DNA of 64,000 nt from Candidatus Geocrenenecus arthurdayi. GTDB taxonomy: Archaea > Thermoproteota > Nitrososphaeria_A > Caldarchaeales > Wolframiiraptoraceae. The stretch spans positions 2,680 to 66,679 of the forward strand of contig JAKCEX010000002.1 of assembly GCA_023539395.1 (NCBI GenBank), in the 5' to 3' direction. The notes under the pieces were generated by a model. The model saw nothing but the letters and a program-made list of their open reading frames with translations, was not told where the DNA came from and searched no databases. Made by a program: the position numbers and the translations under genes. This document shows, one piece after another, positions 7,652 to 61,961 of this stretch (position 1 is the first letter of the stretch; each line of letters begins with the position of its first letter).

Positions 7652-8579
7652 CTTTCCTAATCTTTACGATGTAGAAACCTTCTGCATTATTATGATATGG
7701 ATATATTCTCAAACTCTTAGATAATTCATCACTCAGCTTCATATTATTCCACTCCGTTAATCCTTCTTCATACCTTAATCCATTCAGCTTAATTTCTTCA
7801 ATATACGCATTACTTCTAGACCTAAGTAATTTGTGGACTACGAGCTCATTTTCTTCAACTGTTAATGTGCAGGTCGAATATACTAGGGTTCCACCTAGTT
7901 TTAAACAATCGAATGCAGCTCTAAGAAGCTGGAATTGTAGTCTAGATAGCCTAATAACATTATGGATAGACCAGTTTTTTACTACACTCCAATCTTTACT
8001 CACTATCCCTAAAGAGCTACAAGGTGCATCCACGAGGACTCTATCAAAGAATTCTCTAGCTATCTTTGGAAAGACTCTCCCATCCAATGTAGTTACTACA
8101 ACATTGTATACTCCAAGCCTCTGAAGGTTTGATGATAATGCTTTACACCTATCTATCACTGGGTCATTCGCTATGAGTACCCCTCTACCTTGAAGGATCT
8201 GGGAGATCTGGGTACTCTTACTTCCAGGTGCAGCACACATATCAAGTATTATCTCACCTGGCCTTGGATCTAGGGCTTCTACAGAGGCCATGGATACTGG
8301 ACCTTGGAGATAGATTAATCCAAGCATATGCTCTATGGTAGTGCTAAGCTCGAATTCCTCCTCCAAGATGTAGCCATACCTAGCCCATGGAATCTTCCTG
8401 AAGAGAATATTCTTCTTTCTCAACCTCTCCAATATGTATTCTTCTGGAAGCTTCAAAGTATTCACTCTGAAACCCTCGGGAAGAGGCCTACTCCAAGAAT
8501 CAATTAAAAGATCATACTCTAGACTAGGTATCCTCGCTAAGTAATCTCTCAGTTCATCTTTCATAAATGATTCAATCAT
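7644..8579 (-). CDS. NOL1/NOP2/Sun-family RNA (cytosine-C5)-methyltransferase
   Basis: SAM motif DMCAAPGSKSTQ and catalytic-Cys motifs DAPCSSLG and TLVYSTCT. Confidence 0.88.
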   Translation of the reverse strand: MIESFMKDELRDYLARIPSLEYDLLIDSWSRPLPEGFRVNTLKLPEEYILERLRKKNILFRKIPWARYGYILEEEFELSTTIEHMLGLIYLQGPVSMASVEALDPRPGEIILDMCAAPGSKSTQISQILQGRGVLIANDPVIDRCKALSSNLQRLGVYNVVVTTLDGRVFPKIAREFFDRVLVDAPCSSLGIVSKDWSVVKNWSIHNVIRLSRLQFQLLRAAFDCLKLGGTLVYSTCTLTVEENELVVHKLLRSRSNAYIEEIKLNGLRYEEGLTEWNNMKLSDELSKSLRIYPYHNNAEGFYIVKIRKGG

Positions 8580-8882
8580 TCCCTACATAGATTCAATAAG
8601 AAATGAGAATATAACTCTAAGATGCTTCTTCCCAGCTGAGATTAAGATACTCTTTCAAGAACTCAAACTTAATGTGCTCTCCCTACAGCATATTCATACA
8701 TGTCTCATCCTAACCATCCTATACAAAGAACTTTCAGATACTCTATATCCAACTTAGACAGCACACTTCATATATTGGCATATTTCAGAAAGAGGTCAAC
8801 CCCTCTGAGACATCTATATTCTTATTTCCTCCCTGAAAACTGAGAAGATACATTTATAGACAACTATTACCTTATCTTAACC

Positions 8883-9344
8883 ATGGGTTCTCATTGGGTA
8901 TTCATTGTTAAGGACCATAAGTTAATGGGTAGGACTATACCTGCCATGGAGGTTTTGAAGGACCGTGTTAAGAATAAGTTCTGGTCTCTAAGTTCAAAGG
9001 CAAGAAATGTTAAGAAAATTAAGCCTGGAGATTACGTACTCTTCTATATAACTGGGAAAGATGAGAGAGGATTTGGAGGATATGGTGTTATAGCTACGGA
9101 ACCTCACCCAGTAACCCCTGAGCAGAGGTTTCATATAGTTGGTATGCCTTCAGAAGCTTTTGATTACGCAGTTGATTTCTCAGAAGCAGTAGTATGGGAT
9201 AAACCTATAGCTTTAGAAGAATTAGGAGATAAGCTGTCTATACTGAAGGGTAGGCGCTCCCTGAAAATACCATTTCGTGGAAGCATAATTAAGATAACTG
9301 AAGAAGATTTTCAAACAGTAATACAATACGAGAAACCTCCATGA
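8883..9344 (+). CDS. EVE/PUA-like (ASCH-superfamily) domain protein
   Basis: HWVFIVK...IKPGDYVLFYITG...GFGGYGVI matches the EVE-domain pattern (W near the N-terminus, GD-x-hhhY, G-h-G). 153 aa. Confidence 0.5.
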   Translation: MGSHWVFIVKDHKLMGRTIPAMEVLKDRVKNKFWSLSSKARNVKKIKPGDYVLFYITGKDERGFGGYGVIATEPHPVTPEQRFHIVGMPSEAFDYAVDFSEAVVWDKPIALEELGDKLSILKGRRSLKIPFRGSIIKITEEDFQTVIQYEKPP

Positions 9345-9402
9345 TCATCTACGCCTAGATGATTCAATCATTTTTAGATGAATAGTGTTCGGCTTTATTC
9401 TT

Positions 9403-10209
9403 CTAGATAATGGGGGGCAGATGCTTTATCTCAAGAAGGGATGGTGGCATCTTCCTCTTATGCTCAGTTTCATAATACCTTCTACAAACCCATACAGCTA
9501 TATCAATAGGTAGCTCAGCCCTCTTAGCTGCTTCTTCAATCCCTAATCCTTCATCAAATATATTAAATAATAATATGTCTAGCTTACTATAATCTACTGG
9601 TAGTTCATTTAATGCAACATGTCCAGGGAAGAGCCTAGGAGCTGAAGGTTTAGTATATATTCGTCTCGGTAAATCTAGGTATGCAGCCAGCTGACGTAGC
9701 TGCGTTTTGTATAGATGTGCGATAGGTAGGAAATCAACTCCTCCATCTCCATACTTTGTATAGTATCCTATCAAGATCTCACTCTTATCTCCTGTTCCAG
9801 CGACAAGCCCACCTATAAGATTTGCATAAAAATAAAGGAGGCACATCCTAATCCTTGCTCTTAGATTACCAAAAGCCATCCTATACTTTTCATCTTCTGG
9901 GTTCAGTTTTAGTGACTCTGCATAACTATCAAGTATCCGGTCTATAGAGATGACCTTGTAGTTTATGCCTAAATGGTTGGCCAGCCATATAGCATCTTCA
10001 ATATCTTCTTGAGGTGTAAAGTATGTAGGCATAATTAATCCTTGAACCCTCTCTGAACCTAGAGCTTTAACTAGTAAAGCAGATGTAACACTACTATCGA
10101 GACCGCCGCTCAGCCCAACTACTACATCCTTCTCCCCTACAATCTTCTGAATAAACTCAACTATCTCCTTAACAACTTTTTGAAAATCAAGTTTCAAAAA
10201 ATCCATCAA
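9403..10209 (-). CDS. nadE: NH3-dependent NAD+ synthetase
   Basis: PP-loop GLSGGLDSSV plus GTGDKSE and YTKYGDGG motifs, 268 aa. Confidence 0.9.
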   Translation of the reverse strand: MMDFLKLDFQKVVKEIVEFIQKIVGEKDVVVGLSGGLDSSVTSALLVKALGSERVQGLIMPTYFTPQEDIEDAIWLANHLGINYKVISIDRILDSYAESLKLNPEDEKYRMAFGNLRARIRMCLLYFYANLIGGLVAGTGDKSEILIGYYTKYGDGGVDFLPIAHLYKTQLRQLAAYLDLPRRIYTKPSAPRLFPGHVALNELPVDYSKLDILLFNIFDEGLGIEEAAKRAELPIDIAVWVCRRYYETEHKRKMPPSLLEIKHLPPII

Positions 10210-10285
10210 GTAAGATTACGCCTACAGCTTCAATTAAAGCAGCCAATATTAATATTTTATTTAAAGTTTAATACAGTATGTAACG

Positions 10286-10373
10286 GGGCCCGTAGCCTAG
10301 AATGGATATGGCGCCGGCCTTCGGAAGTATTGGAGAAAGCCGGAGGTCGAGGGTTCAAGTCCCTCCGGGCCCG
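10286..10373 (+). tRNA. tRNA-Arg (anticodon UCG) with a 13-nt intron after position 37
   Basis: Hand-folded cloverleaf. Acceptor GGGCCCG/CGGGCCC, D arm GCCT..TGGC with GG in the loop, anticodon stem CCGGC/GCCGG, loop CUUCGGA, variable loop AGGTC, T arm GAGGG-TTCAAGT-CCCTC, discriminator G. There are 20 nt between the anticodon-stem strands, implying an intron at about 10325-10337. No CCA is encoded. Confidence 0.85.
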
Positions 10374-10595
10374 ATTATGAATTACCGTGTGTCAACATTC
10401 TTAGATAAATCTACATCTCATAAGTGATAGTGTTTTACATCATCATGTATTCAAGGGATTTTCCTAGTAATCTTTAGTACCGGTTCTCTATTAAGTATTG
10501 TCTCTAGGATTTTACAGGATTATTCGTAGTATTATTTTTATTGTTTTCGAGATACAACATTTATCTATTGACTATTCCATAGGTAAATCCTGGTC

Positions 10596-11330
10596 ATGGT
10601 TACTGCTAGGAGTACTGGAAGAGAATTATTTCAAATTAACAATGGTGTTAGCCATATAGTAGTTGATTTACTTAAAGTTCTTAAAGATAGGTATAATTAT
10701 AAGAAGCTTTCAAACTTAACGGGTATCCCTATCTCTACATTAACAAGATACTTAACCGGGAAAACTATCCCAAAAGGTAGTAAAGCTAGGCGGCTTCTCA
10801 AAAATCTCGTCTTGAATCTGAATCTTTCATCTCTTATATCCCAGTTAATTAGAGATGGTGATTCAATCGATCTATTCAAGGTAATGTTTAATCCAAATAT
10901 GATTAAGATTATAGGAGCACATGTTATAAACGAGTATGTAGGAATGAAGATTACTTCTTTCATGGCTTTAGACTTATTAAGTATTCCATTAACAGCTTAT
11001 CTATCCACTGTTACATCACGCCACTTCTATATAGTTGCTAGAGAACCATTACCCGTAGATAACCAAGAACTCTTCACTATATTCTTAAATGATTCTAGGA
11101 GCATCTGGCCAACATGCTACTGGGTTTATTTCAATCAAGCTAGGAAGAAAGAAAGTATATTGATGGTCTCTGCAAAAACCCCAGAGTATGAATTCTTCAA
11201 TAAGCTTATCGAAGTACTTGAGAAGAAGAATGTTGAGATAGCTGGTTTATTCTCACTGATAGGAAGTGAGGAGGAATTCTCAATGCTAAGCTTAAAACCT
11301 GGATGTAAGAGATACTGTATCTTATCATGA
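10596..11330 (+). CDS. HTH-domain protein with a degenerate phosphoribosyltransferase-like C-terminal domain (putative regulator)
   Basis: KKLSNLTGIPISTLTRYLTGKTIP reads as a helix-turn-helix. The C-terminal part has a PRTase-like strand/helix pattern but no acidic PRPP loop. Confidence 0.4.
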   Translation: MVTARSTGRELFQINNGVSHIVVDLLKVLKDRYNYKKLSNLTGIPISTLTRYLTGKTIPKGSKARRLLKNLVLNLNLSSLISQLIRDGDSIDLFKVMFNPNMIKIIGAHVINEYVGMKITSFMALDLLSIPLTAYLSTVTSRHFYIVAREPLPVDNQELFTIFLNDSRSIWPTCYWVYFNQARKKESILMVSAKTPEYEFFNKLIEVLEKKNVEIAGLFSLIGSEEEFSMLSLKPGCKRYCILS

Positions 11331-46008: not shown

Positions 46009-46713
46009 GTGTCCGCTAACAAGTTTGAAGAAGATATCTTGAGAACTGTTGAGAAAGCTGTTACATTCTATGGTGGCCAGATATACAGTAGGTTGACGAA
46101 GCTAAGTAGTAAGCTTATCGAATTACATAGGATAAACAAGGTTAAGGTAAACCACTCAGTAATGGAGATCGTTATGGGTGCTTACCTAGTAAACCGTGGC
46201 TATGAGGTATATGTAGAAGAAGAAGTAGGAAACTCTCTTATCGCAGATATTGTAGCGTATAGAAATGGGAAGAGAATGATTATCGAGATAGAGACAGGTT
46301 TTGTATCTCCTGAGAATGCATTAGACCCTCAAAGCTACTTAACGGCTAGAATAATTAGCAAGACTGCAAGATACGGGAAACATGCAGATGTATTCTCTCT
46401 TGCAACACCATTACATAACATACTCCAAATACCAGACCTCTACCTAAAACCATTTAAAGAAAGAAGGAAAGAAGAAACGATTATACTAAAAAACCTATGT
46501 GATAGATACTACTCTAACCCTCCAATAACACTTGAAGATATAGAGAAATCAGAGATTAAATCAATCTACCTATTAAACATCGATACATTAGAGGTAAGAA
46601 AACTAACATTAAGAAAATATGTAAAATCTACAATCTCTAAACTAACCCCCAGAAAAATAGATATCAAAAAATATGTAGAGTGGAGCCAACTCTCGGAGCA
46701 GGTAAGAGCTTGA
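46009..46713 (+). CDS. Orphan protein with a possible PD-(D/E)xK (restriction-endonuclease-like) core
   Basis: GTG start. SVMEIVMGAYL...LIADIVAYRNGKRMIIEIETG fits the helix-E ... hhhD ... hhhExx strand pattern of NucS/Hjc-like nucleases, but the usual Lys is not obvious (EIE). The C-terminal ~110 aa are unassigned. Confidence 0.35.
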   Translation: MSANKFEEDILRTVEKAVTFYGGQIYSRLTKLSSKLIELHRINKVKVNHSVMEIVMGAYLVNRGYEVYVEEEVGNSLIADIVAYRNGKRMIIEIETGFVSPENALDPQSYLTARIISKTARYGKHADVFSLATPLHNILQIPDLYLKPFKERRKEETIILKNLCDRYYSNPPITLEDIEKSEIKSIYLLNIDTLEVRKLTLRKYVKSTISKLTPRKIDIKKYVEWSQLSEQVRA

Positions 46714-47165: not shown

Positions 47166-47399
47166 ATGACGGTGTATGCCTACGTCTTACTAAGATGTAG
47201 AATGGGGAAATTGAAAGATGTAATCTCTGAAGTGCAGAAGATTGAGAATGTTAAAGCTGCTTATCCAGTAACTGGTAGATTTGATGCAGTAATAGAAATT
47301 GAAGCAGAAGATGTAAAAACGCTATCAAGCCTAGTTATTGAACGTATCCAGGTTATCGAAGGAGTTGAGAGAACAGAAACCCTCCTCTCCTTGGGGTGA
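47166..47399 (+). CDS. Stand-alone RAM (Lrp/AsnC ligand-binding) domain protein
   Basis: A 77-aa protein, AYVLLRC..GKLKDVISEVQKIENVKAAYPVTGRFDAVIEIEAEDVKTL, which is the AsnC_trans_reg C-terminal domain with no HTH. Confidence 0.8.
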   Translation: MTVYAYVLLRCRMGKLKDVISEVQKIENVKAAYPVTGRFDAVIEIEAEDVKTLSSLVIERIQVIEGVERTETLLSLG

Positions 47400-47405
47400 G
47401 GAAAA

Positions 47406-47639
47406 ATGCCTATTCAAGCATATGTATTCATAAGAGTATTGAAAGGTAATGCCAATGCTGTATTGAGAGCTGTTTCAAGGATTAAAGGTGTAAAATCTGC
47501 TAGAATGGTAACTGGAAGATACGATGTTGTAGCATTTGTTGAAGTTGAATCAATCGAAGAACTTGGAAAACTTGTTGCTACAAGGATACATAGAGTAAGA
47601 GGCGTACAATCTACAGAGACAGCGGTTGCTATCACATAA
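47406..47639 (+). CDS. Stand-alone RAM (Lrp/AsnC ligand-binding) domain protein, paralogue
   Basis: A 77-aa protein with the same pattern (AYVFIRV...IKGVKSARMVTGRYDVVAFVEVESIEEL). It starts 7 nt after the previous gene. Confidence 0.8.
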   Translation: MPIQAYVFIRVLKGNANAVLRAVSRIKGVKSARMVTGRYDVVAFVEVESIEELGKLVATRIHRVRGVQSTETAVAIT

Positions 47640-47653
47640 CCCCCTATTTTTTA

Positions 47654-48190
47654 TTATAGATAAACAACTTCACCATCATGTAAACACGCATATCTTGGAA
47701 GTTTATGTTTTATTTCTCTACCTAACTCTAGGATGTGTATAACCTGGAATCCTCTAGAAAATAAGTAGTCTGAGATGAATCTTCTATGGCATCTCCATGG
47801 GAATCTTTCCCTACACATTATTACAGTAGTCTTCTGCTCAGCAATAGAGGCTAGCTTCACGAGAGCCTGCTTAGCTCCATTATTAATAGCTAAATATGTA
47901 GCATAAGCTCTAAATCCTTCAGACTTGATAGATTTACCGATCCCTATATCTTCAACATCTTCTCCAAACTTTCTAAACCCACCTAGCTCCTTAATCCAAA
48001 CATAATCTATACTTAACTTCCTCAATGTTTTCAATAGATTATCGTATGAGAAATGCGGTGAGAACCTACTGGATGGAAATCTTCTAACATCAAATAAAAT
48101 CTGAATAGAATAATCCTGGATAATATTGATAAATTCTTTGAGATCACGGTTTGAGTGCCCTAAAGTATATACGTGTACCACCATATCCAT
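47654..48190 (-). CDS. DUF488-family protein
   Basis: VYTLGHSNR....FI..........DVRRFPSSRFSPHF...L...L......Y.....LGG is the DUF488 N-terminal signature. Confidence 0.75.
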   Translation of the reverse strand: MDMVVHVYTLGHSNRDLKEFINIIQDYSIQILFDVRRFPSSRFSPHFSYDNLLKTLRKLSIDYVWIKELGGFRKFGEDVEDIGIGKSIKSEGFRAYATYLAINNGAKQALVKLASIAEQKTTVIMCRERFPWRCHRRFISDYLFSRGFQVIHILELGREIKHKLPRYACLHDGEVVYL

Positions 48191-48261: not shown

Positions 48262-49698
48262 CTACTCAATAGGATATACGATTCTAGTGAATGGTGGTTG
48301 ACGTTTTTCTTCACGTAAATATGAAATAACCGCAGCTATAATATTCAGTACTGCTGAAGCTAATAATGAATTTCTTATACCTTGTACAAGGTTGGCAATC
48401 TGAGATAAAGATTCCATACTACTTCTACCGTTATTAATAAGTTTAGATGACTCACTGGAAGGTATAGTTGTAGATATTATAGCTATTGAGAATGGTATGC
48501 TTAGAGCCATACTAGTGTTTATTATAGTACTCCTAACACCTGCAGCTACACCTCTCATTTCGCTAGGCACAGACCCCATAACTGAGCTTGCGTTAGGGCT
48601 ACGGAATAATCCTACACCAAGCCCAGCCATTACTAACCCTATCAAGAGTATGTTATATTCTAGGTTGATAGAAATATTAGATAAAGTTATTAATGCGATA
48701 GCACTAACTATTAAGCCAACTGTACTAAGAATTCTCCCCCCAATCTTATCTGAAAACCATCCACTAACTGGACCGACAAGTATCAATGTTAAGTCGAGAG
48801 GTATCAAGCTTAAACCTGCTTGGATAGGTGAAAATCCTGCGACAATCTCAAGATATGTTGAGATTAGGAAAGCTAAAGATGCAAAAGACAATCCATTCAG
48901 TAGATTAGATATGTTTCCAGCTGTAAATGTTCTAATCTTGAATAGTTTAAAGTCGAGCATTGGGTAAACGATCTTCCTCTCGACAATTATGAATAATGTT
49001 AAGAGGATTAGACTTGTAATGATTAGAGATAATGGTATAGGTGAGGTAATAGCTCCAGAAGTTAAACCAAGCATAAGCAGTGTTAGGGAAGTGGAGAACA
49101 TAATTGCTCCTGTAAAATCGAATCTTTCCACTCTTGTAGATGGATTTGTCCCCTTTAATCTAAGTCTCGCCCAGAATCCACCGAATACTCCAATTGGGAC
49201 ATTTATCAAGAATAGCGCTCTCCAACCATATAAACTAATTATTACACCACTTAGGGTATAGCCGATTACTGTTCCAGCATTTATTGCTATCTGGTTTACT
49301 CCTATACCTAGTCCGAGCCCCCTACCTGCAAAAGCATCTGTAACTATCGCCATAGAATTAACAAACATTAATGCTCCGCCAACCCCCTGTATCGACCTAA
49401 AGAATAGTAATTGATAGATATCTGAGGAAAGCGCACATAGCAGTGAGCTTAAAGCAAATATGAAGTATCCCATAGAGTATAGTCTAACTCTTCCATACAT
49501 ATCTCCTAATCTACCGATAGGTACAAGTAGAATAGTTATTGCAAGCCGATAGATGGTTATAAGCCAGCTTCCAATAGCTAGGTCTGCTCTAAGCTCATTT
49601 ATGACTACTGGTAAACCTACAACTAAGAGACTAGCATCAAGAGAAGCCATAAATATGCCTATAGTAGTAACTGTAAGAACACTCCACCGACCTTCCAT
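48262..49698 (-). CDS. MFS transporter, 14-TM drug:H+ antiporter (EmrB/QacA-like)
   Basis: About 14 hydrophobic segments and the MFS motif A-like GRLGDMYGR after TM2. Confidence 0.85.
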   Translation of the reverse strand: MEGRWSVLTVTTIGIFMASLDASLLVVGLPVVINELRADLAIGSWLITIYRLAITILLVPIGRLGDMYGRVRLYSMGYFIFALSSLLCALSSDIYQLLFFRSIQGVGGALMFVNSMAIVTDAFAGRGLGLGIGVNQIAINAGTVIGYTLSGVIISLYGWRALFLINVPIGVFGGFWARLRLKGTNPSTRVERFDFTGAIMFSTSLTLLMLGLTSGAITSPIPLSLIITSLILLTLFIIVERKIVYPMLDFKLFKIRTFTAGNISNLLNGLSFASLAFLISTYLEIVAGFSPIQAGLSLIPLDLTLILVGPVSGWFSDKIGGRILSTVGLIVSAIALITLSNISINLEYNILLIGLVMAGLGVGLFRSPNASSVMGSVPSEMRGVAAGVRSTIINTSMALSIPFSIAIISTTIPSSESSKLINNGRSSMESLSQIANLVQGIRNSLLASAVLNIIAAVISYLREEKRQPPFTRIVYPIE

Positions 49699-49769: not shown

Positions 49770-50579
49770 TTAGACCATGGATTCAGGGATACCATTGGGG
49801 CGAAAACTAATCTTTGGCTTCAGCCTCCTCATCTCCAAAAGCCTAATTACATGGGGGTAGAGTATAACATATTCTTCATCAATACATTTTGAGAGAAGTG
49901 GATGAATATTTGAAAGCTTTTCTTGGAGAAGCTCGTAATCTCTCTTTTCACTGAAGCTAAGCATTACAGCTGGATAAACTTGATCACACGGCTTTGCACC
50001 TACCTCGATAAGATTCTCTAGAGCTTTCAATTGTAGGTCAAAAAATTCTGGTCTAGCAAGAGTGATCTTATGGAAATCTTCTCTACAGCATCCTTTAAGA
50101 GAAACTCTAACAACCAAGTAATTATATTGTACTAGTTTTCTAGCGAAATCAGGGTCGTCCCCAATAATTAAACCATTAGTTTCTAAGACGAACTGTAACT
50201 TAGAGTTCTCCAATAATCTTGATAGTTCTAGAATGTGTTCTCTAGAGATTGTTGGCTCTCCTCCACTTAATCTAACCATTCTAAAACCTGAAGAATATGC
50301 AATATTTCTTAATTGCTGAAAAGATTGTCTTGGATTACAGTAGAATCCTTTAGCCATTATATGGCTTGCAGACTTCCAGCTCCAACACATACCACATCTC
50401 AAGTTACATCCTACAACATCCCCCGTAGCTATACCACCATACCATCTATCTTTCCTAAACCTGTAGTACCTCCTCTCTTCCACGTTATCAACCATCCTAA
50501 CAACTTTTTCTCTGATATATTCTGTTAACTTTAATGGATCGTACCCCTTCTCTATGCTTATTCCATTCATCTTTTTCAC
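49770..50579 (-). CDS. Small radical SAM enzyme (archaeal Fe-S oxidoreductase type)
   Basis: CxxxCxxC cluster motif GCNLRCGMCWSW preceded by RWYGGIATGD. The SGGEPT glycine-rich SAM motif is present. A GTG start overlaps the upstream stop (GTGA). An ATG lies 9 nt downstream. Confidence 0.8.
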   Translation of the reverse strand: MKKMNGISIEKGYDPLKLTEYIREKVVRMVDNVEERRYYRFRKDRWYGGIATGDVVGCNLRCGMCWSWKSASHIMAKGFYCNPRQSFQQLRNIAYSSGFRMVRLSGGEPTISREHILELSRLLENSKLQFVLETNGLIIGDDPDFARKLVQYNYLVVRVSLKGCCREDFHKITLARPEFFDLQLKALENLIEVGAKPCDQVYPAVMLSFSEKRDYELLQEKLSNIHPLLSKCIDEEYVILYPHVIRLLEMRRLKPKISFRPNGIPESMV

Positions 50580-51511
50580 CTTCTAAGTATTTTGAATGGA
50601 TCTTTCCCTTTACTCAAATATTTTGCACCGTAAAGATACGTAGCAGTCTGCAGCCATCCAGCAGCCACTCCAAATGATTTATACATCTTGTAAGTAATAC
50701 ATCTATCTATTATCTTACAATCATTGCTAATAAAACACTTTGAATATGCACAAAGGTTCTTCAGCGGTATTTTATCATCGGGATCAATTATGCCTAAAGC
50801 TTCACCGATTCTAAGTAAGTGTCTATCAACTTGGCTTAGACAGGTTAAGCCTAATGAGAATAACCCCCATCCATGAGCTATCTTGGGTCCACAATACTCT
50901 ACTGATAACAGCTTCTTACGAATCTCTAAGAATTTATTAAGAGAGTGAGATTCTACTGATAGATTATCTTTGAGTATAGATGTGAGTTTTCCTCTAACCT
51001 TGTTAAGCTGTCTAAGCTGGTAACTCCTACCTATATTGTTGAATCTTACATTGGATAGTTTATCTTCAGTCTCAGCTATCTTGAATATCTTCTTCACCCA
51101 GATAACCGTATTTCTATAGTAATCTGTATTCCGAGATAAGAAGACTGTATAGAGCATGCCAATCTTATCCCATGGATTGATGGCAATCCCTAGCCCAGGG
51201 AATACTTCTAGAAATTTCTCTAAGATCTTCCTTGCGTTCCTACTAGCATTAGCTATCTCTAAGTGGGGGTTAAACCATGCACCACTAAGCATTAATACTT
51301 CATTAGGGCTACCAAGATTAAATCTTAGAGTATCAGCTTCACATTCTATTCTTAACCCTCTATTCCATCCATAAAATTTTACGTATCCTCTACTATGTTT
51401 CTCAAAGAAAGGTAAAACAAAAGATGCATTAAGAGATTCATCGAGATTAAACTCTCTCCAGACTTCCACATATTGTCCATCTGGATTCAATTGCTTATCG
51501 AATATCACCAT
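50576..51511 (-). CDS. HhH-GPD superfamily DNA glycosylase-like protein (AlkA/Ogg-like) with a C-terminal Cys4 cluster
   Basis: Helix-hairpin-helix YCGPKIAHGWGLFSLGL followed by the catalytic-Asp context SQVDRHLLRIG. FLSRNTDYYRN resembles the SQNT motif. The C-terminus reads CAYSKCFISNDCKIIDRC. Confidence 0.65.
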   Translation of the reverse strand: MVIFDKQLNPDGQYVEVWREFNLDESLNASFVLPFFEKHSRGYVKFYGWNRGLRIECEADTLRFNLGSPNEVLMLSGAWFNPHLEIANASRNARKILEKFLEVFPGLGIAINPWDKIGMLYTVFLSRNTDYYRNTVIWVKKIFKIAETEDKLSNVRFNNIGRSYQLRQLNKVRGKLTSILKDNLSVESHSLNKFLEIRKKLLSVEYCGPKIAHGWGLFSLGLTCLSQVDRHLLRIGEALGIIDPDDKIPLKNLCAYSKCFISNDCKIIDRCITYKMYKSFGVAAGWLQTATYLYGAKYLSKGKDPFKILRR

Positions 51512-51726
51512 ATTCTTCTTTCACTAACCTCTAGAAATAAAAAATATGTGTACTTTGATTTATGCTTTCATGATAATGGATGCACTTAGAGAAATTCTTA
51601 ACAGCATAAATCTTATAGCGCTTAATAATAAGGCGCGCACTCAGAGAGGATAAAATTAATAGGGTAGAGGTCATGGTAAGGTGGCCCTCAAGAAGATTCA
51701 TAATAGATGTATTAGAGGACTCAATG

Positions 51727-52254
51727 TTAAATTCTAGGTATGGTTGGACCCCTCTGGTTTTGGTATCTACCACTATATGGTTTTTGAGTAGGTGAGGATA
51801 GTTTAACAAATACTATCTGAACTATCCTATCACCTCTACGTATCTTTACTGGGAAAGGTCCACCAATCAGCTCTATAGTTAATTCACCTTCAGAGCCTGC
51901 ATTCACTATCGTGGGAGGAATACTTAAGCCTAGCCTAGCATATGTACTCTTCAAGCTTACAAACCCCATAATATCCACTGGGAGTTTAAGATACTCGATA
52001 CTAGATAATAGGAGATGCTCTCTAGGCTTAACAATAAATTCTTTACAATCTTCTTGGATAAAGTATCCATTAATGTTTCCTATGTTCTCCAAGTCTAAGA
52101 CTTTCTTCTTATTTTTCAATCTAACAACTCTTCCATTCACTCTTAAATCTACGCTATTTGGTCCTATGAGGTTATTCTCAAAAACTTCTGAACTAGGTGT
52201 TATCAGCAGACCCCTTGAAACATACTCTATTATATCTCTATCACTAAGGATCAT
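51727..52254 (-). CDS. dcd: dCTP deaminase family (dCTP deaminase or bifunctional dCTP deaminase/dUTPase)
   Basis: MILSDRDI..., NSVDLRV, and C-terminal GDRIVQIVFVKL...PYSGRYQNQRGPT. Confidence 0.88.
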   Translation of the reverse strand: MILSDRDIIEYVSRGLLITPSSEVFENNLIGPNSVDLRVNGRVVRLKNKKKVLDLENIGNINGYFIQEDCKEFIVKPREHLLLSSIEYLKLPVDIMGFVSLKSTYARLGLSIPPTIVNAGSEGELTIELIGGPFPVKIRRGDRIVQIVFVKLSSPTQKPYSGRYQNQRGPTIPRI

Positions 52255-52581: not shown

Positions 52582-53493
52582 TTGACCTACACTTACCTAA
52601 TTAGATTGTTTGATCCTTGGAAGAGTAGTCTGTGTACTTGCCCAGTAAAGTATTCATTCGACCCATATACTGGATGTAGTCATAGATGCTTATATTGTTA
52701 TGCATCATCATACATAAAAGAGTTCTACAATTGTAGACCCAAGAAGAACCTCATAGAAATAGTTAGGAAAGATTTAGCGAAGCTTCCCAATAATGCTATT
52801 ATATCTATGTCGAATAGTTCTGACCCTTATCCTCCCTTAGAGAAAGAATTAAGACTTACGAGAAGATGTATAGAGCAATTTAAGAAGTATCCTGTAAGAT
52901 TACTTGTAATAACTAAGAGTGATATGGTTGTAAGAGATATAGATTTATTGGGAGAGATTGGAGCTGCAGTAACTATAACTATAACTACACCTGATGATTC
53001 TCTAGCTAGAAAGATAGAACCATCAGCTCCACCGCCTTCTAGAAGGATCCAAGCTTTAGCTAAGCTGTCTGAAGAAGGAGTTAATACAGGGTTAAGGCTA
53101 GACCCGTTAATACCCTTAGTAAATGATCATGGTTTTAGAGAATTGTTAATTGAAGCAAGAGATGTTGGTGTAAGACATGTTGTATCAAGTACTTTTAAGC
53201 CCAGGTTTGATAGCTGGAAAAGAATAATACAAGCTTTTCCTGAACTTGAAGAATCATTAAGGAAACTCTACATAATTGAAGGAGAGAGGATTGGGAGGTC
53301 TATGTATCTTGAAAAGAGTATTAGGTTTAAGATGATGAGAGAAATTGCTAAAGAATGTGCTAAGCTTGGATTACCCTTTGCAACCTGTAGAGAAGGCTTC
53401 CAAGAACTACATACTTCTCCGACATGTGACGGGAGCCACCTCATTAAAATCAATCAAACCTTAGATAAACAGCATCTAGACTTAATGTATTAA
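52582..53493 (+). CDS. Radical SAM protein, SplB-like (COG1533 'DNA repair photolyase' family)
   Basis: Cluster motif CSHRCLYCYA near the N-terminus. The 303-aa length and ISMSNSSDPYPPLE and RLDPLIP motifs are typical of the family. TTG start. Confidence 0.75.
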   Translation: MTYTYLIRLFDPWKSSLCTCPVKYSFDPYTGCSHRCLYCYASSYIKEFYNCRPKKNLIEIVRKDLAKLPNNAIISMSNSSDPYPPLEKELRLTRRCIEQFKKYPVRLLVITKSDMVVRDIDLLGEIGAAVTITITTPDDSLARKIEPSAPPPSRRIQALAKLSEEGVNTGLRLDPLIPLVNDHGFRELLIEARDVGVRHVVSSTFKPRFDSWKRIIQAFPELEESLRKLYIIEGERIGRSMYLEKSIRFKMMREIAKECAKLGLPFATCREGFQELHTSPTCDGSHLIKINQTLDKQHLDLMY

Positions 53494-57805: not shown

Positions 57806-58492
57806 CTAACGAGCAAATGTCTTCACAATACTTAGTAATGCTTTAATAGCTTCCTCAGCTTCTTCTCTAGATACTTTTCTACTCTTATTAATAATCTCAC
57901 TTAGCTTCTCTGTTAATATTTCTATCGGGTCTCTACCATATAATTCTATTCTTATCTTCTCTACCATGACTGGTTCAGGAGATATGAAAGCTCCTTTTAG
58001 AAGTAGTTCATCGTCTAGTTTAATGGCTTCTAGTAATCCAACATCTAGGTCTCCTAACCTAATCTTGTATAAGCTGTCTCCAGTTAATGTCTTACCAATT
58101 TCTTCTACGATGAGCCTACCTTCGATAATCTCTTTTACATGTCTTACTGCTTCTGCTACAACTTCATCTATCTTCTCCTTCGGTATCCTCTTGTATGCCT
58201 CGATCCTTAGATTATCATAATCCCATCTTAACTCTCTACCATAAACTTCATACTTAATATTTATTCTAACGACATCCAATTTATCTAACTTCAACTTCTC
58301 AACAAGGATATGATAGAGAAAGGTATTCAATTCTCTCGAAGCTCTAGCAACATCTTCCTTACTTAATTCTCCAGACTTAACCTTCTCAGCAAATTGTGCA
58401 AATAAAGCTTTCCTTAATTTATCAGCGTATGCTCCAGCTATCGTAAGCCCTGACCTAACCTCTCCCCTCTCCCCACCGTTTTCCATACCCAC
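57806..58492 (-). CDS. Conserved archaeal hypothetical protein (possibly DUF2258-like)
   Basis: SGLTIAGAYADKLRKALFAQ... Highly charged helical protein of 228 aa. Family assignment is from memory only. Confidence 0.4.
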   Translation of the reverse strand: MGMENGGERGEVRSGLTIAGAYADKLRKALFAQFAEKVKSGELSKEDVARASRELNTFLYHILVEKLKLDKLDVVRINIKYEVYGRELRWDYDNLRIEAYKRIPKEKIDEVVAEAVRHVKEIIEGRLIVEEIGKTLTGDSLYKIRLGDLDVGLLEAIKLDDELLLKGAFISPEPVMVEKIRIELYGRDPIEILTEKLSEIINKSRKVSREEAEEAIKALLSIVKTFAR

Positions 58493-59684: not shown

Positions 59685-60617
59685 TTATTTCTCAAATCTT
59701 CTCCTTAATTCTGCTAAGACATCACTTAAGCTTCTATAGCTTTCTTTTCTTAACTGTTTTAGGATTACAGACGCTGGAGCCCTCGTCTTCGAATCTACGT
59801 CAATAAGCTTCCACCCATGCTTCTTTACCAGTTCATTTTTAGTTGTTGGGAATACAGCATCACTTAATACTTCTGCAAGGGAGTCTATTCCATAACTACT
59901 CGTAACAGGTGGTAGTTCATCTTTCTTTATGAATCTCTCCATTCTAGCAGCATCAAGGTACATTGAGATTCCATGGAAACTTAGATAGACTTTTCTAGAT
60001 TTTCTTCTATCAGCTCTCTCCTTGATTAGCTTAAGGTCTTCATCTGTAAATTGATATATATTATGTTCACCTAAACCAAATAGTCTACTATATGATATTT
60101 CCTCATCATCATAGGGTGGTTCTTCTCTAGAATAATCTGTTATAGGTATTATACCCATGCTCTGAAACTCATCTAATGATTCTCTACTATCACTATACCA
60201 TCCGCATCTAGGTTCTAGAGCCATCCTAACCTCATTAAACTCAACCTCTCCTAAGATGCTTTTTAGGTTTTGAAGGATATATTGTAGACTTAGATTCTTC
60301 GGTGTCTCTAATACTAGTACTCTAGAATTGAGGATTCTACATATCTCAAGCATTTCTTTTAAAGCTTTTAATGTATTATTTGTTAATCTTAATGCTTCTG
60401 AATGTGTAATGATTCTATTTGCTTTAACCGTGAACTCGAAATCTAATGGGACACGCTTTCTCCATGAAACTATAGTCTTAAGGCTAGGTAATGTATAGAA
60501 AGTTGAATTAACTTCAACGAACTTAAATGCTAATGAATACATTTTCAACGGGTCTTCATTTAATACCTTAAAGTAATGCCACCCACCACACCCAACAACT
60601 ATCTCTGTCCTAGACAT
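59685..60617 (-). CDS. DUF72-family protein with a DUF2795-like C-terminal extension
   Basis: N-terminus VGCGGWHY...FVEVNSTFY fits the DUF72 pattern. The C-terminal ~70 aa (VFPTTKNELVKKHGW...SYRSLSDVLAEL) resemble DUF2795. Confidence 0.7.
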   Translation of the reverse strand: MSRTEIVVGCGGWHYFKVLNEDPLKMYSLAFKFVEVNSTFYTLPSLKTIVSWRKRVPLDFEFTVKANRIITHSEALRLTNNTLKALKEMLEICRILNSRVLVLETPKNLSLQYILQNLKSILGEVEFNEVRMALEPRCGWYSDSRESLDEFQSMGIIPITDYSREEPPYDDEEISYSRLFGLGEHNIYQFTDEDLKLIKERADRRKSRKVYLSFHGISMYLDAARMERFIKKDELPPVTSSYGIDSLAEVLSDAVFPTTKNELVKKHGWKLIDVDSKTRAPASVILKQLRKESYRSLSDVLAELRRRFEK

Positions 60618-60788
60618 CCTCTAATGCTAATATATGAAACTCGTTTTTAAGAAATTTCCTAACAATCATCTCATAATACAAGTAGCCGTATAACCGAGAG
60701 ATTATACCAGTTGTTATAATTATATGCTTTACTCTAGAAAAACTAGAAACCTACATAACCTAGTTATTGATATTACTAGGCTTAGAGA

Positions 60789-61961
60789 TTGTCAAGAGTC
60801 TTCATAGGGACTAGTGGATGGAGTTACTCAGACTGGGAAAACGTATTCTATAAGTCTGAGAAGCATAAGCTAAAGAGATACTGCATGGTTTTCAATACAG
60901 TTGAAGTAGACTCAACTTTCTATTCATACCCCTCACTAGAACTAGTAAAAGGATTAGTGAATTCTACTCCTGATGGTTTTGTTTTTACAGCTAAGTTACC
61001 ATCCTTAATAACTCATGAAAAGAAGCTTGATATCTCAAAAGGAGTAGAGAAAGACTTAGATAGATTCCTAGAGTTTATGCAGCCAATTAATAAAGCTGGG
61101 AAACTGGCTTCCCTACTCATACAGCTGCCTCCAAGATACAGTTATGATAAGTATTCTGAAGTATTCAGAGAATTCCTGAATCTCACAGTTGGGGAATTCA
61201 GGTATGCTGTAGAGTTTAGAGATTTTTCGTGGCTTAGAGAAGATGTCTTGAATCTACTCTCAAAGTATGATGTAGCGTACACTATCGTTGATGAACCACT
61301 CCTTCCACCCTATACCTACGTTACTACAGATTTCGCATACATTAGATGGCATGGAAGAGGTAGAAATCCATGGTACTACTACCATTATAGCTTGAGCGAA
61401 TTAAGTGAGTGGAAACAGAGGATCCTAGAAGTAAGAGATAAAGTCGGAAGAGTATACGGATACTTTAATAACCACTTTAAAGGCTACGCTGTACACAATG
61501 CACTTCAAGTCCTCGAAATCCTCGAAATAATCACACCTACCCAGAGAAAAATCCTCGAAGAAGTAGAGAAGAATCTTCAGGAAGTAAAGATACAGCAACC
61601 TAGTCATATCCTTTATCTTCTTCCAGAGAAGCTTCCTGAGAAAATTGAAGAATTACTTGGAATGCTAACTGATAAGGTAAGGTTGAAGAGAGCAAAAGAG
61701 ATTACAGAAGACTTGATTGAGGTAAGAGAAATAACTGAACAACATCTATCTGCAAAAGTAAAAGATTACAATATCGTAATAGATTTAGAAAAACGTATAA
61801 TAATCCATGATTGTGCTGACTGGTCTAGAACTAGAACTTCATTAAGCTTCTGTAAACATTTAAACGCTTTGATCCTCAACATAGATGAAAGATACGCAAG
61901 GAGAATCCTAGAAGATGTGATTATCAATAGGAGCCTCTGGTCATTTATAGAGAATGTTTGA
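60789..61961 (+). CDS. DUF72-family protein with a C-terminal SWIM-like zinc-finger extension
   Basis: IGTSGWSYSDWENVFY...FNTVEVDSTFY...IQLPP...YIRWHGR is the DUF72 core. The C-terminus YNIVIDLEKRIIIHDCADW...SFCKHLNALIL is SWIM-like (HxC...CxH). TTG start. Confidence 0.72.
   Translation: MSRVFIGTSGWSYSDWENVFYKSEKHKLKRYCMVFNTVEVDSTFYSYPSLELVKGLVNSTPDGFVFTAKLPSLITHEKKLDISKGVEKDLDRFLEFMQPINKAGKLASLLIQLPPRYSYDKYSEVFREFLNLTVGEFRYAVEFRDFSWLREDVLNLLSKYDVAYTIVDEPLLPPYTYVTTDFAYIRWHGRGRNPWYYYHYSLSELSEWKQRILEVRDKVGRVYGYFNNHFKGYAVHNALQVLEILEIITPTQRKILEEVEKNLQEVKIQQPSHILYLLPEKLPEKIEELLGMLTDKVRLKRAKEITEDLIEVREITEQHLSAKVKDYNIVIDLEKRIIIHDCADWSRTRTSLSFCKHLNALILNIDERYARRILEDVIINRSLWSFIENV

Follow-up and report, generated by a model that had tools for sequence, protein, structure and literature searches.

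The window analysed here, a whole 64,000-nucleotide stretch of a Candidatus Geocrenenecus arthurdayi contig, carries on its minus strand two overlapping genes that are the subject of this analysis. The upstream gene (50576..51511, minus strand, ATG start) encodes a 311-aa protein that resembles the HhH-GPD glycosylase/AP-lyases of Ogg1 architecture, and the downstream one (49770..50579, minus strand) encodes a radical SAM (rSAM) protein of 269 aa when read from GTG, or of 266 aa when read from an ATG at 50570. An earlier, sequence-only reading had reported proteins of 311 and 269 aa, the latter with a GTG start, for 49770-51511; both open reading frames are confirmed there, and the motifs that it quoted from them (YCGPKIAHG, SQVDRHLLRIG, CAYSKCFISNDCKIIDRC, GCNLRCGMCWSW) are indeed present. 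Further genes of the surroundings are a DUF488 protein (47654..48190, minus strand), a Major Facilitator Superfamily (MFS) transporter (48262..49698, minus strand), a dCTP deaminase (dcd; 51727..52254, minus strand), and a protein similar to spore photoproduct lyase (SPL) or PA0069 (52582..53493), the latter encoded by a gene separate from that of the 269-aa rSAM protein.

The 311-aa protein escapes the usual sequence libraries. Pfam, NCBIfam, PADLOC and single-sequence PDB searches returned no match, the Pfam gathering scores of PF00730 and PF22175 were not reached, and only four of 64 relatives gave matches to the Ogg-HhH Pfam families, all of them below threshold. The assignment as HhH-GPD and Ogg-like stands nevertheless, because the AF2 model with Foldseek, hhalign, and the family profile agree. 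The AF2 model (pLDDT 91.7) consists of an N-terminal beta-sheet domain, with DSSP strands at residues 13-65 as in the TBP-like sheet of the Ogg1 family, followed by a helical domain with the two-lobed HhH-GPD fold. Foldseek against the PDB gave 99 matches at E<=1e-3, of which the top 50 listed are all of the Ogg1 type (among these types human and mouse OGG1, Clostridium acetobutylicum Ogg, and MBOgg1, 4ejy), aligned over their full length (about 330 columns of the Ogg1 chains) with TM 0.58-0.65. By hhalign the protein matches hOGG1 at E 1.3e-5 over residues 192-293, and the profile of the 64-member family finds in the PDB MBOgg1 (1.3e-9), EndoIII (4e-9) and hOGG1 (6e-8). The HhH-GPD core and the Ogg-like N-terminal domain proposed from the letters are therefore both borne out, Pfam being blind to either. 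EndoIII and MutY belong to the same superfamily but lack the Ogg1/AlkA-type N-terminal domain. The 311-aa protein is the founder of an unannotated archaeal branch of HhH-GPD proteins with Ogg1 architecture, amounting to about 165 clusters at 50% identity.

The residues on which catalysis would depend are retained. The HhH motif, the Gly/Pro loop and the catalytic Asp span residues 200-235 (50807..50914, minus strand), as placed by hhalign with an hOGG1 query sequence that was checked against 1ko9_A. In this alignment YCGPK210...VD229RH pairs with GVGTK249...VD268VH of hOGG1: K210 (50882-50884, minus strand) falls on K249, D229 (50825-50827, minus strand) on D268, and H231, after the Asp, on H270, while the Lys-Asp spacing of 19 residues equals that of the human enzyme. 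Both K210 and D229 are invariant in 65 of 65 relatives and likewise in 64 distant representatives; G208 is invariant or nearly so. EndoIII likewise has a lysine in its HhH motif, K120. Towards the C-terminus, the 'AGWLQTATYLYG' helix (50621..50662, minus strand) is the counterpart of the hOGG1 base-pocket helix 'AGWAQAVLF' (generally, 'AGWxQ...aromatic'), with Q288 on Q315 and Y292 on F319; Q288 is found in 63 of 65 relatives and is invariant in the alignment of distant representatives (A3). Hence both marks of the Ogg1 family, the Lys249/Asp268 pair and the Gln315/Phe319 pocket helix, have their equivalents in K210/D229 and Q288/Y292. The Schiff-base lysine and catalytic aspartate of bifunctional glycosylase/AP-lyases are kept, from which that activity is predicted, and the base pocket of Ogg1 is still represented by its Gln and its aromatic residue. 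In Ogg1, an 8-oxoguanine DNA glycosylase, the contacts specific for 8-oxoG are those of the Gly42 carbonyl and Cys253.

Before the last conserved helix lies an internal Cys4 site (50699..50752, minus strand) with the pattern C254-x4-C259-x5-C265-x5-C271. It is conserved in the family as C-x4-7-C-x2-6-C-x4-6-C: C254 occurs in 65, C259 in 63, and C265 and C271 each in 64 of the 65 relatives, which supports the significance earlier attached to the motif. Its supposed location, at the position of the [4Fe-4S] loop of EndoIII and MutY, does not hold. The site follows the catalytic-Asp helix, precedes the GWxQT helix, and aligns with, and replaces, loop 277-305 of hOGG1 (hhalign), whereas the EndoIII-type motif comes after the GWxQT helix. 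Such a motif (C-x4-C-x2-C-x5-C) is present as an extra, second one at the EndoIII position in 23 of 63 relatives, and PF10576 is matched by four of 64 family members. The 311-aa protein itself ends in ...GWLQTATYLYGAKYLSKGKDPFKILRR with no Cys and lacks the C-x6-C-x2-C-x5-C loop of EndoIII and MutY. Sequence order and the separate canonical loop of relatives therefore rule out that the Cys4 is the EndoIII/MutY loop; it is a separate insertion, earlier in the chain. Ogg1 enzymes carry no metal cluster, and with its conserved Cys4 the protein represents a distinct branch rather than an Ogg1 orthologue. Its identity to Ogg1 is about 14%, and it scores under all Pfam cutoffs. The ligand is presumed to be [4Fe-4S] or Zn.

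The two genes meet at AGAAGGTGAAAAAGATG (50568..50584, minus strand), which reads AGA AGG TGA AAAAG ATG. The stop codon TGA of the glycosylase-like gene (50576-50578) lies here within a GGTGA site resembling a Shine-Dalgarno sequence. A GTGA overlap of this stop with a GTG start of the rSAM gene (50577-50579) had been noted before; the overlap is real in the sequence, but GGTGA has the look of a Shine-Dalgarno site for an alternative start, the in-frame ATG (50568-50570), 9 nt downstream. From this ATG the rSAM protein has 266 aa, the same length as a database protein (P0044) that is 99% identical to it. Whichever start is used, the two genes are tightly coupled, and 4-nt overlaps occur at 20 related loci (13 ATGA and 7 GTGA). 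Upstream, a TATA-box-like TATTTTTTATTT (51535..51546, minus strand), about 29 nt before the glycosylase ATG, suggests a separate promoter with a short or absent leader.

The partner has the attributes of the radical SAM superfamily: a PF04055 match (60.2 bits vs a cutoff of 29.5), a match to Fer4_12, Foldseek matches to rSAM enzymes, an invariant LSGGEPT that holds the SAM-binding GGE motif, and a CX3CX2C cluster loop (50385..50408, minus strand). Cysteines C58, C62 and C65 of this loop are the only invariant ones in the alignment (A2), with no auxiliary cysteines among its invariant positions. Beyond the superfamily the protein is hard to place. The AF2 model (pLDDT 90.4) gave only generic rSAM matches in Foldseek, and the rSAM profile only weak generic ones in the PDB. 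No NCBIfam equivalog was matched (best 53.7 bits vs a cutoff of 400), and no family named RaSEA is among the 25 listed of the 42 NCBIfam families that the protein matched; the annotated part of the window has neither an ArcS nor a TGT gene near the pair. In its ca. 260 aa, single CX3CX2C, Fer4_12 match and partial barrel it is like the group of PFL-activating enzyme (PFL-AE), NrdG, QueE and viperin. Its minimal barrel is closest in size to PFL-AE, whose substrate is a macromolecule (a protein), with TM ~0.58 to PFL-AE and ~0.5 to QueE and viperin. It differs from the group by scores of 22-31 bits vs cutoffs of 131-260 (QueE 24-25 vs 206-260, NrdG 23.6 vs 131, viperin 27.8 vs 180), and by hallmarks of its own, an invariant N-terminal 'YYRFRxxRWYGGIATGD' hairpin and a C-terminal 'IDEEYVILYPHV' motif. 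Identity with QueE, viperin, NrdG or MoaA was rejected: scores are far under the NCBIfam cutoffs and structure and profile matches are generic. The 1454 homologues (more than 1400 clusters at 90% identity) are named 'radical SAM protein' only. NCBIfam, the PDB and Foldseek place it in no family of established function, and we regard the protein as a minimal, single-cluster member of an uncharacterised rSAM family. Spore photoproduct lyase (SplB), a single-cluster rSAM enzyme that treats a DNA lesion by radical chemistry of the lyase type, may serve as a functional analogy; the 269-aa protein shows no SPL-specific similarity in Pfam, NCBIfam or Foldseek, and SPL works alone whereas the gene considered here is paired with that of a glycosylase.

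The pairing is found well beyond the window. The rSAM gene is present at 41 of 68 glycosylase loci and, in the reverse test, the glycosylase gene at 55 of 70 informative rSAM loci. In 100 loci with both genes the order is glycosylase to rSAM in 86, rSAM to glycosylase in eight, divergent in four and convergent in two. The pair extends over Caldarchaeales, Bathyarchaeia, Methanomethylicia, Brockarchaeota, Thermoproteales, Thermofilales and Desulfurococcales, and the linkage recurs in Thermosphaera and in the complete Staphylothermus marinus F1 genome. When flanking ORFs were clustered, the rSAM gene emerged as the sole widely conserved neighbour, the remainder being lineage-limited genes and antisense shadow ORFs; such a conserved partner also sets the 311-aa protein apart from Ogg1. 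The adjacency is thus conserved in many archaeal orders and in four arrangements, but to call the two enzymes obligatorily co-expressed, as had been done, is an overstatement: about 29% of the informative glycosylase loci (ca. 17) and 21% of the rSAM loci (15) have no partner nearby. The suggested search for gene fusions gave none between the two families among the best 150 of 165 glycosylase clusters; five long family members are fusions with TFIIB-cyclin/HTH domains and carry no rSAM. Linkage to an rSAM gene holds for nine of 23 relatives that have the canonical C-terminal cluster and for 31 of 40 that lack it. None of the three conditions by which the sequence-only reading would have been refuted applies, as both the adjacency and the Cys motif are conserved and the rSAM family is uncharacterised. 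That an enzyme of base-excision type and an rSAM enzyme are functionally linked is thus well supported. The genes are chromosomal, in a housekeeping context, and sequence identity drops with taxonomic distance (between orders 27-45% for the glycosylase, compared to 50-60% for rSAM). A viral origin or carriage was rejected, no relative being found in IMG/VR and the best match in the viral library BFVD being a generic AlkA-family protein. Literature searches for rSAM with HhH-GPD, DUF488 with rSAM, and Ogg with Fe-S in Crenarchaeota yielded nothing on the pair.

Among the other neighbours, DUF488 is a second recurrent partner. The protein (178 aa, with a C-x-E...CHR motif and a PF04343 match at 1.5e-27) is encoded co-directionally, two genes downstream of rSAM in the window, and 18 of the fetched loci have a DUF488 gene near the pair or near rSAM. 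Ten of these have it immediately downstream of rSAM and contain no glycosylase gene, and six of the ten belong to the 15 loci whose flanks measure 1.2 kb or more on each side. DUF488 is probably a third component of the module. The MFS transporter (PF07690), situated between rSAM and DUF488, probably lies outside it because it is a neighbour solely within Caldarchaeales (six close loci). The dcd gene (TIGR02274, 154.5 bits vs a cutoff of 92.8), co-directional and 215 nt upstream, is a neighbour in eight loci of two lineages (Caldarchaeales and Sulfolobales MAGs) and is taken as context only.

The reading that we favour, at a probability of roughly 40%, is that the two or three enzymes form a module that deals with a lesion or modification of DNA purines. 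The glycosylase and the rSAM enzyme would work on one and the same nucleic acid, most probably at a purine of DNA that is damaged or modified. Lacking an auxiliary cluster, the rSAM enzyme would be confined to reactions that begin with hydrogen abstraction (those of lyases, isomerases or dehydratases, with spore photoproduct lyase, QueE and viperin as examples), and may convert a base or sugar lesion, or release its crosslink, where hydrolytic enzymes fail. Flipping out the lesion, its excision, and a strand nick by K210-dependent beta-elimination would fall to the Ogg1-like protein, whose Cys4 would most likely hold a [4Fe-4S] cluster that helps to bind DNA or stabilises the structure, although Zn could be the ligand. 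DUF488 might then trim the resulting blocked end, a role that reportedly goes back to Burroughs and Aravind in 2023. In favour are the fold and catalytic residues, the conservation of K210, D229 and the Cys4, the linkage in both directions, the minimal single-cluster rSAM, the recurrence of DUF488 next to it, and the chromosomal context with no viral copies. Distant family members in DpdA/TGT-QueC-QueE-FolE-QueT islands also link the glycosylase family in its wider extent with the chemistry of guanine derivatives in DNA. The order of action and the identity of the lesion are guesses. Against this reading stand the loci with adequate flanks and no partner, by which the linkage is not universal, the want of fusions, and the far stronger conservation of the rSAM protein, whose main role could therefore be an independent one.

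The alternative that survives best, though we consider it unlikely, is modification or antiviral defence, the pair installing, removing or policing a non-canonical DNA purine such as a 7-deazaguanine-type or hypermodified base, with the Ogg1-like protein as reader or excision enzyme and rSAM as the enzyme of base chemistry. The distant TFIIB-fused family members sit in islands of TGT/DpdA, QueC, QueE, FolE, QueT and BrxC/D-like ATPase genes. A precedent is provided by the Dag1-type HhH glycosylases, bifunctional defence enzymes directed against 7-deazaguanine (bioRxiv 10.1101/2025.10.29.685425). DUF488 matches candidate-defence families of PADLOC, in which rSAM has a weak pVip match (31 bits) and the glycosylase none. 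Unlike the Dag1/Dpd islands, however, the surroundings of the window pair are free of TGT, Que and restriction genes, and the distribution of the pair looks vertical and single-copy in a housekeeping context rather than island-like. With the QueE of a Dpd-type island rSAM shares only the generic core (hhalign) and it remains under all QueE and viperin cutoffs; neither IMG/VR nor BFVD points to viral homologues.

Rather less probable is the second option of the sequence-only reading, that rSAM acts on the glycosylase itself, by post-translational modification or activation or as maturase of the Cys4. The tight translational coupling would suit it, as would the nearness of rSAM in size and shape to PFL-AE with its protein target, and the lower rSAM linkage of relatives that have the canonical C-terminal cluster. 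But the family alignment of the glycosylase shows no glycyl-radical-type motif or other invariant modifiable loop, rSAM has neither the auxiliary clusters nor the SPASM domain by which protein and cofactor maturases are usually marked, it lies directly upstream of DUF488 in 10 loci that have no glycosylase gene (six of them with flanks of 1.2 kb or more on each side), and its conservation exceeds that of the protein on which it would act.

Slightly more doubtful still is a salvage of nucleosides, nucleotides or nucleobases in which the HhH protein would be a mononucleotide N-glycosidase and rSAM would remodel the released base; analogues are Qng1, which acts on queuosine monophosphate, and QueL, a queuine lyase. 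This would agree with dcd as a neighbour in two lineages, with the MFS transporter inside the window cluster, and with the pair of Desulfurococcaceae, which adjoins genes for a carbamate kinase, an OTCase, an amidohydrolase and a dihydropyrimidine-dehydrogenase-like protein. These metabolic neighbours are confined to particular lineages, however, and the HhH DNA-backbone motif, the lyase lysine and a wedge-like SxNT motif are all retained, while many relatives have the EndoIII-type DNA-binding cluster loop. Mere inherited synteny of an ordinary repair glycosylase with an unrelated (e.g., RNA-modifying) rSAM enzyme, which the loci lacking a partner and the absence of fusions would allow, is very improbable given that the proximity survives four arrangements and seven lineages from Caldarchaeales to Desulfurococcales with all other neighbours changing.

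To return to the repair or editing module, its possible place in DNA metabolism can be outlined only tentatively. To our knowledge, spore photoproduct lyase is the sole rSAM enzyme firmly established in DNA repair, and the base-excision enzymes that we know of are thought to operate without radical partners. The module might constitute a second radical-SAM pathway of DNA repair or editing, a proposal that we put forward with less confidence than the module itself, in which rSAM would supply the radical chemistry on a purine lesion or modification, the Ogg1-like Fe-S protein the recognition, flipping and excision, and DUF488 the end processing. By pure inference, candidate lesions would be C-C-bridged or non-hydrolysable ones typical of anoxia, e.g., 5',8-cyclopurines; we know of no proven nucleotide-excision route for lesions of this type in many of these archaea. 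The Cys4 insertion would be a new metal-site architecture for the HhH-GPD superfamily. If the reading is true, three unannotated families (the glycosylase, the rSAM enzyme and DUF488) would receive their first functions, and the mostly uncultured thermophilic Thermoproteota would possess a new route of repair or DNA editing. With two small proteins, the way in which anaerobic hyperthermophiles cope with non-hydrolysable base damage becomes directly testable.

The two coupled ORFs lie on the minus strand where the sequence-only reading had placed them: an Ogg1-like HhH-GPD protein of 311 aa with an ATG start (50576..51511) and a radical SAM protein of 269 aa with a GTG start (49770..50579). Their junction reads AGA AGG TGA AAAAG ATG. 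The claimed GTGA overlap of the glycosylase stop codon TGA with the radical SAM GTG is present, but this GTG sits inside a Shine-Dalgarno-like GGTGA. Starting instead from the in-frame ATG 9 nt further on, at 50570, the protein would have 266 aa, just as many as P0044, a database protein with 99% identity; the pair is tightly coupled whichever start is used. A TATA-like TATTTTTTATTT about 29 nt upstream of the glycosylase ATG suggests that the pair may have its own promoter. The neighbourhood consists of genes ordinary for an archaeal chromosome: dcd (dCTP deaminase; 51727..52254, minus strand), an MFS transporter (48262..49698), DUF488 (47654..48190, minus strand), CorA, EamA, glutamate dehydrogenase and others. 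The dcd, glycosylase, radical SAM, MFS and DUF488 genes form a co-directional cluster, with DUF488 last. The nearest named relatives are MAGs of Caldarchaeales ('Aigarchaeota', Ca. Geocrenenecus).

The 311-aa protein matched nothing in Pfam, NCBIfam, PADLOC or a single-sequence PDB search, and its close homologues are all named 'hypothetical' (43/43), none with a Pfam domain. For its AlphaFold2 model, built from 42 homologues (pLDDT 91.7, pTM 0.89), the 50 best PDB matches in Foldseek were all Ogg1-type 8-oxoguanine glycosylase/lyases, among them MBOgg1, C. acetobutylicum Ogg, and human and mouse OGG1 (TM 0.58-0.65, E as low as 3e-7, about 14% identity); since the alignments span about 330 columns, the match includes the N-terminal beta-sheet domain. 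A close-family profile found only Sulfolobus Ogg2 in the PDB (3fhg, E 0.005), and a profile of 64 distant representatives found MBOgg1 (1.3e-9), EndoIII (4.4e-9) and human Ogg1 (hOGG1; 5.8e-8). An hhalign comparison with hOGG1 (sequence identical to 1ko9_A; probability 80%, E 1.3e-5) paired K210, D229, H231, Q288 and Y292 with K249, D268, H270, Q315 and F319, respectively. These results back the Ogg/HhH-GPD-like nature first read from the sequence. Invariant in 65 genome-derived relatives are K210, D229, K251, S126, N128, T129, N134, W138 and S163, and 63 of the 65 keep Q288. With its catalytic residues aligned and conserved, the protein carries all the features expected of a bifunctional glycosylase/beta-lyase, which is its predicted activity. 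Divergence is too great for orthology to any described family; within the HhH-GPD enzymes, the protein represents a new branch that has Ogg1 architecture and, in addition, a conserved Cys4 site.

The cysteines of this site (C254, C259, C265 and C271) are invariant in 42 close homologues and occur in 63 to 65 of 65 wider relatives, with a spacing of C-x4-7-C-x2-6-C-x4-6-C that in several Desulfurococcales members is exactly C-x6-C-x2-C-x5-C. They had been assigned to the position of the EndoIII/MutY cluster. In sequence order, however, they follow the catalytic-Asp helix and precede the 'GWxQT' helix, in the place of the 277-305 loop of hOGG1, whereas the EndoIII and MutY cluster comes after the helix equivalent to 'GWxQT'; the C-terminal end of window-type proteins has no cysteines. 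A second motif, C-x4-C-x2-C-x5-C, occupies the canonical EndoIII-type C-terminal position besides the internal site in 23 of 63 relatives (Thermoproteales, Pyrodictium, Zestosphaera and others), and four of 64 representatives weakly matched Pfam EndIII_4Fe-2S. Sequence order and this separate canonical motif rule out the EndoIII/MutY loop, and we predict a family-specific extra metal site, its spacing making [4Fe-4S] more probable there than Zn. Linkage to the radical SAM gene is rarer in relatives with both motifs (9/23 versus 31/40; raw counts, uncorrected for phylogeny and flank length).

In Pfam, the radical SAM protein matched only PF04055 (60 bits) and Fer4_12, and its 42 NCBIfam matches all fell far under their own cutoffs. 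Homologues numbered 1454; the 120 listed, including proteins of Staphylothermus marinus F1, Thermosphaera, Thermogladius and Ignisphaera, bear generic names only. Profile comparison with the PDB gave generic radical SAM matches only, as did Foldseek with the model (pLDDT 90.4; BlsE, LipA, PFL-AE, QueE, viperin and MoaA, TM 0.45-0.58). The sole invariant cysteines are C58, C62 and C65, and the protein therefore has no auxiliary cluster. Single-cluster radical SAM enzymes of about 260 aa are limited to chemistry started by H-abstraction, of lyase, isomerase, dehydratase or activase type. With a striking invariant N-terminal segment, 'YYRFRxxRWYGGIATGD', and a 'IDEEYVILYPHV' motif, these proteins form a new, minimal radical SAM family.

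Scanning one genome per GTDB species, we found glycosylase relatives at 69 loci, all in TACK/Thermoproteota lineages (Caldarchaeales, Bathyarchaeia, Methanomethylicia, Culexarchaeia, Brockarchaeota, Thermoproteales, Thermofilaceae, Desulfurococcales and Sulfolobales MAGs). In 41 of 68 loci the radical SAM gene is no more than 6 kb away; it is missing from about 17 others whose flanks are adequate. Conversely, among 80 metagenomic radical SAM loci, 55 have the glycosylase gene, mostly abutting, 15 are without it although each side has 1.2 kb or more of flank, and 10 are uninformative. Where both occur (100 loci), the glycosylase gene precedes the radical SAM gene in 86 and follows it in 8, and the two are divergent in 4 and convergent in 2; four-nucleotide overlaps occur in 20 (13 ATGA, 7 GTGA). 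The genes abut in Thermosphaera and are divergent, two genes apart, in the complete S. marinus F1 genome. The proposed fusion search yielded no radical SAM fusion among the best 150 of 165 family clusters in an exhaustive representative search; the five long proteins are TFIIB-cyclin/HTH fusions. The general idea of the sequence-only reading thus withstood the three findings it had named against itself, in that adjacency recurs in other genomes, the radical SAM family has no established unrelated function, and the Cys motif is conserved; 'obligatory' co-expression was an overstatement, given the loci without a partner. The pair has no description in the searchable literature, and the observation is real and non-trivial: thermophilic Thermoproteota show a strong genomic association of the two genes, in several arrangements, and DUF488 is often the third gene.

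Other features accompany these loci. The dcd gene adjoins the glycosylase gene in Caldarchaeales and in Sulfolobales MAGs without a nearby radical SAM gene, a proximity that may reflect either a link to the nucleotide pool or chance. Divergent from dcd is a second radical SAM gene (303 aa, 52582..53493, plus strand) of the PA0069/Rv2578c, SplB-like 'DNA repair photolyase' type (NF033668 6e-35, below cutoff; weak spore photoproduct lyase matches); its conservation at this position is confined to Caldarchaeales loci. Also conserved only there is a 234-aa protein (46009..46713, plus strand) without Pfam or NCBIfam match, beside two tandem 77-aa ORFs (47166..47639, plus strand), of which 47166..47399 is a stand-alone Lrp/AsnC ligand-binding domain. 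A few kb from the pair lie two adjacent divergent DUF72 paralogues and a ThermoDBP-related ssDNA-binding protein (59685..61961 and 57806..58492); the window's sole Rfam match is one tRNA (10286..10373). In Desulfurococcaceae, the pair adjoins carbamate kinase, two OTCase-like genes, amidohydrolase, a dihydropyrimidine-dehydrogenase-like Fe-S flavoprotein, DUF711 and Cren7, which looks like a lineage-specific nucleobase or carbamoyl catabolic neighbourhood.

DUF488 is the second recurrent neighbour (18 loci), and that of the window matches PADLOC candidate-defence families (PDC-M45B). Burroughs and Aravind are said to have placed DUF488 in 2023 in the rhodanese-phosphatase superfamily, with nucleic-acid end or sugar-phosphate processing predicted. 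Two TFIIB-cyclin/HTH-fused distant relatives of the glycosylase, P0310 (locus L156, 6001-7746) and P0311 (locus L157, 6664-8370), stand in independent islands that both encode TGT/DpdA-like proteins, a BrxC/D-like ATPase, DUF6884 and QueT; L156 adds QueC, FolE (GTP cyclohydrolase I), a QueE-like radical SAM protein and a PLD nuclease. These islands are archaeal 7-deazaguanine DNA-modification or restriction-type clusters with a glycosylase-like component. In L157, two Cys-rich proteins (383 and 350 aa; 8413-9564 and 9561-10613) follow the fused gene. A 2025 preprint (bioRxiv 10.1101/2025.10.29.685425) shows that HhH glycosylases can serve as bifunctional enzymes in defence against 7-deazaguanine DNA. 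A DNA modification or defence role for the window pair is nevertheless rather unlikely: unlike the fused relatives, it has no TGT/Que-type island genes nearby, and its radical SAM protein resembles QueE in the generic core only.

Maturation of the glycosylase by the radical SAM enzyme is improbable; at 10 of the 18 DUF488 loci, DUF488 lies directly downstream of the radical SAM gene with no glycosylase gene in the locus (for six of the ten, each flank is 1.2 kb or longer). Nucleotide or nucleobase salvage is quite improbable, and mere synteny highly so, the radical SAM gene being the only glycosylase neighbour conserved outside a single lineage. We infer that the two proteins act on the same nucleic-acid substrate. 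Tentatively, with a probability of about 40%, the pair and DUF488 may form a module processing a DNA lesion or modification, in which the radical SAM enzyme would convert, in the manner of spore photoproduct lyase, a purine lesion beyond the reach of hydrolytic enzymes, the Ogg1-like protein would recognize, excise and nick, and DUF488 would trim the ends.
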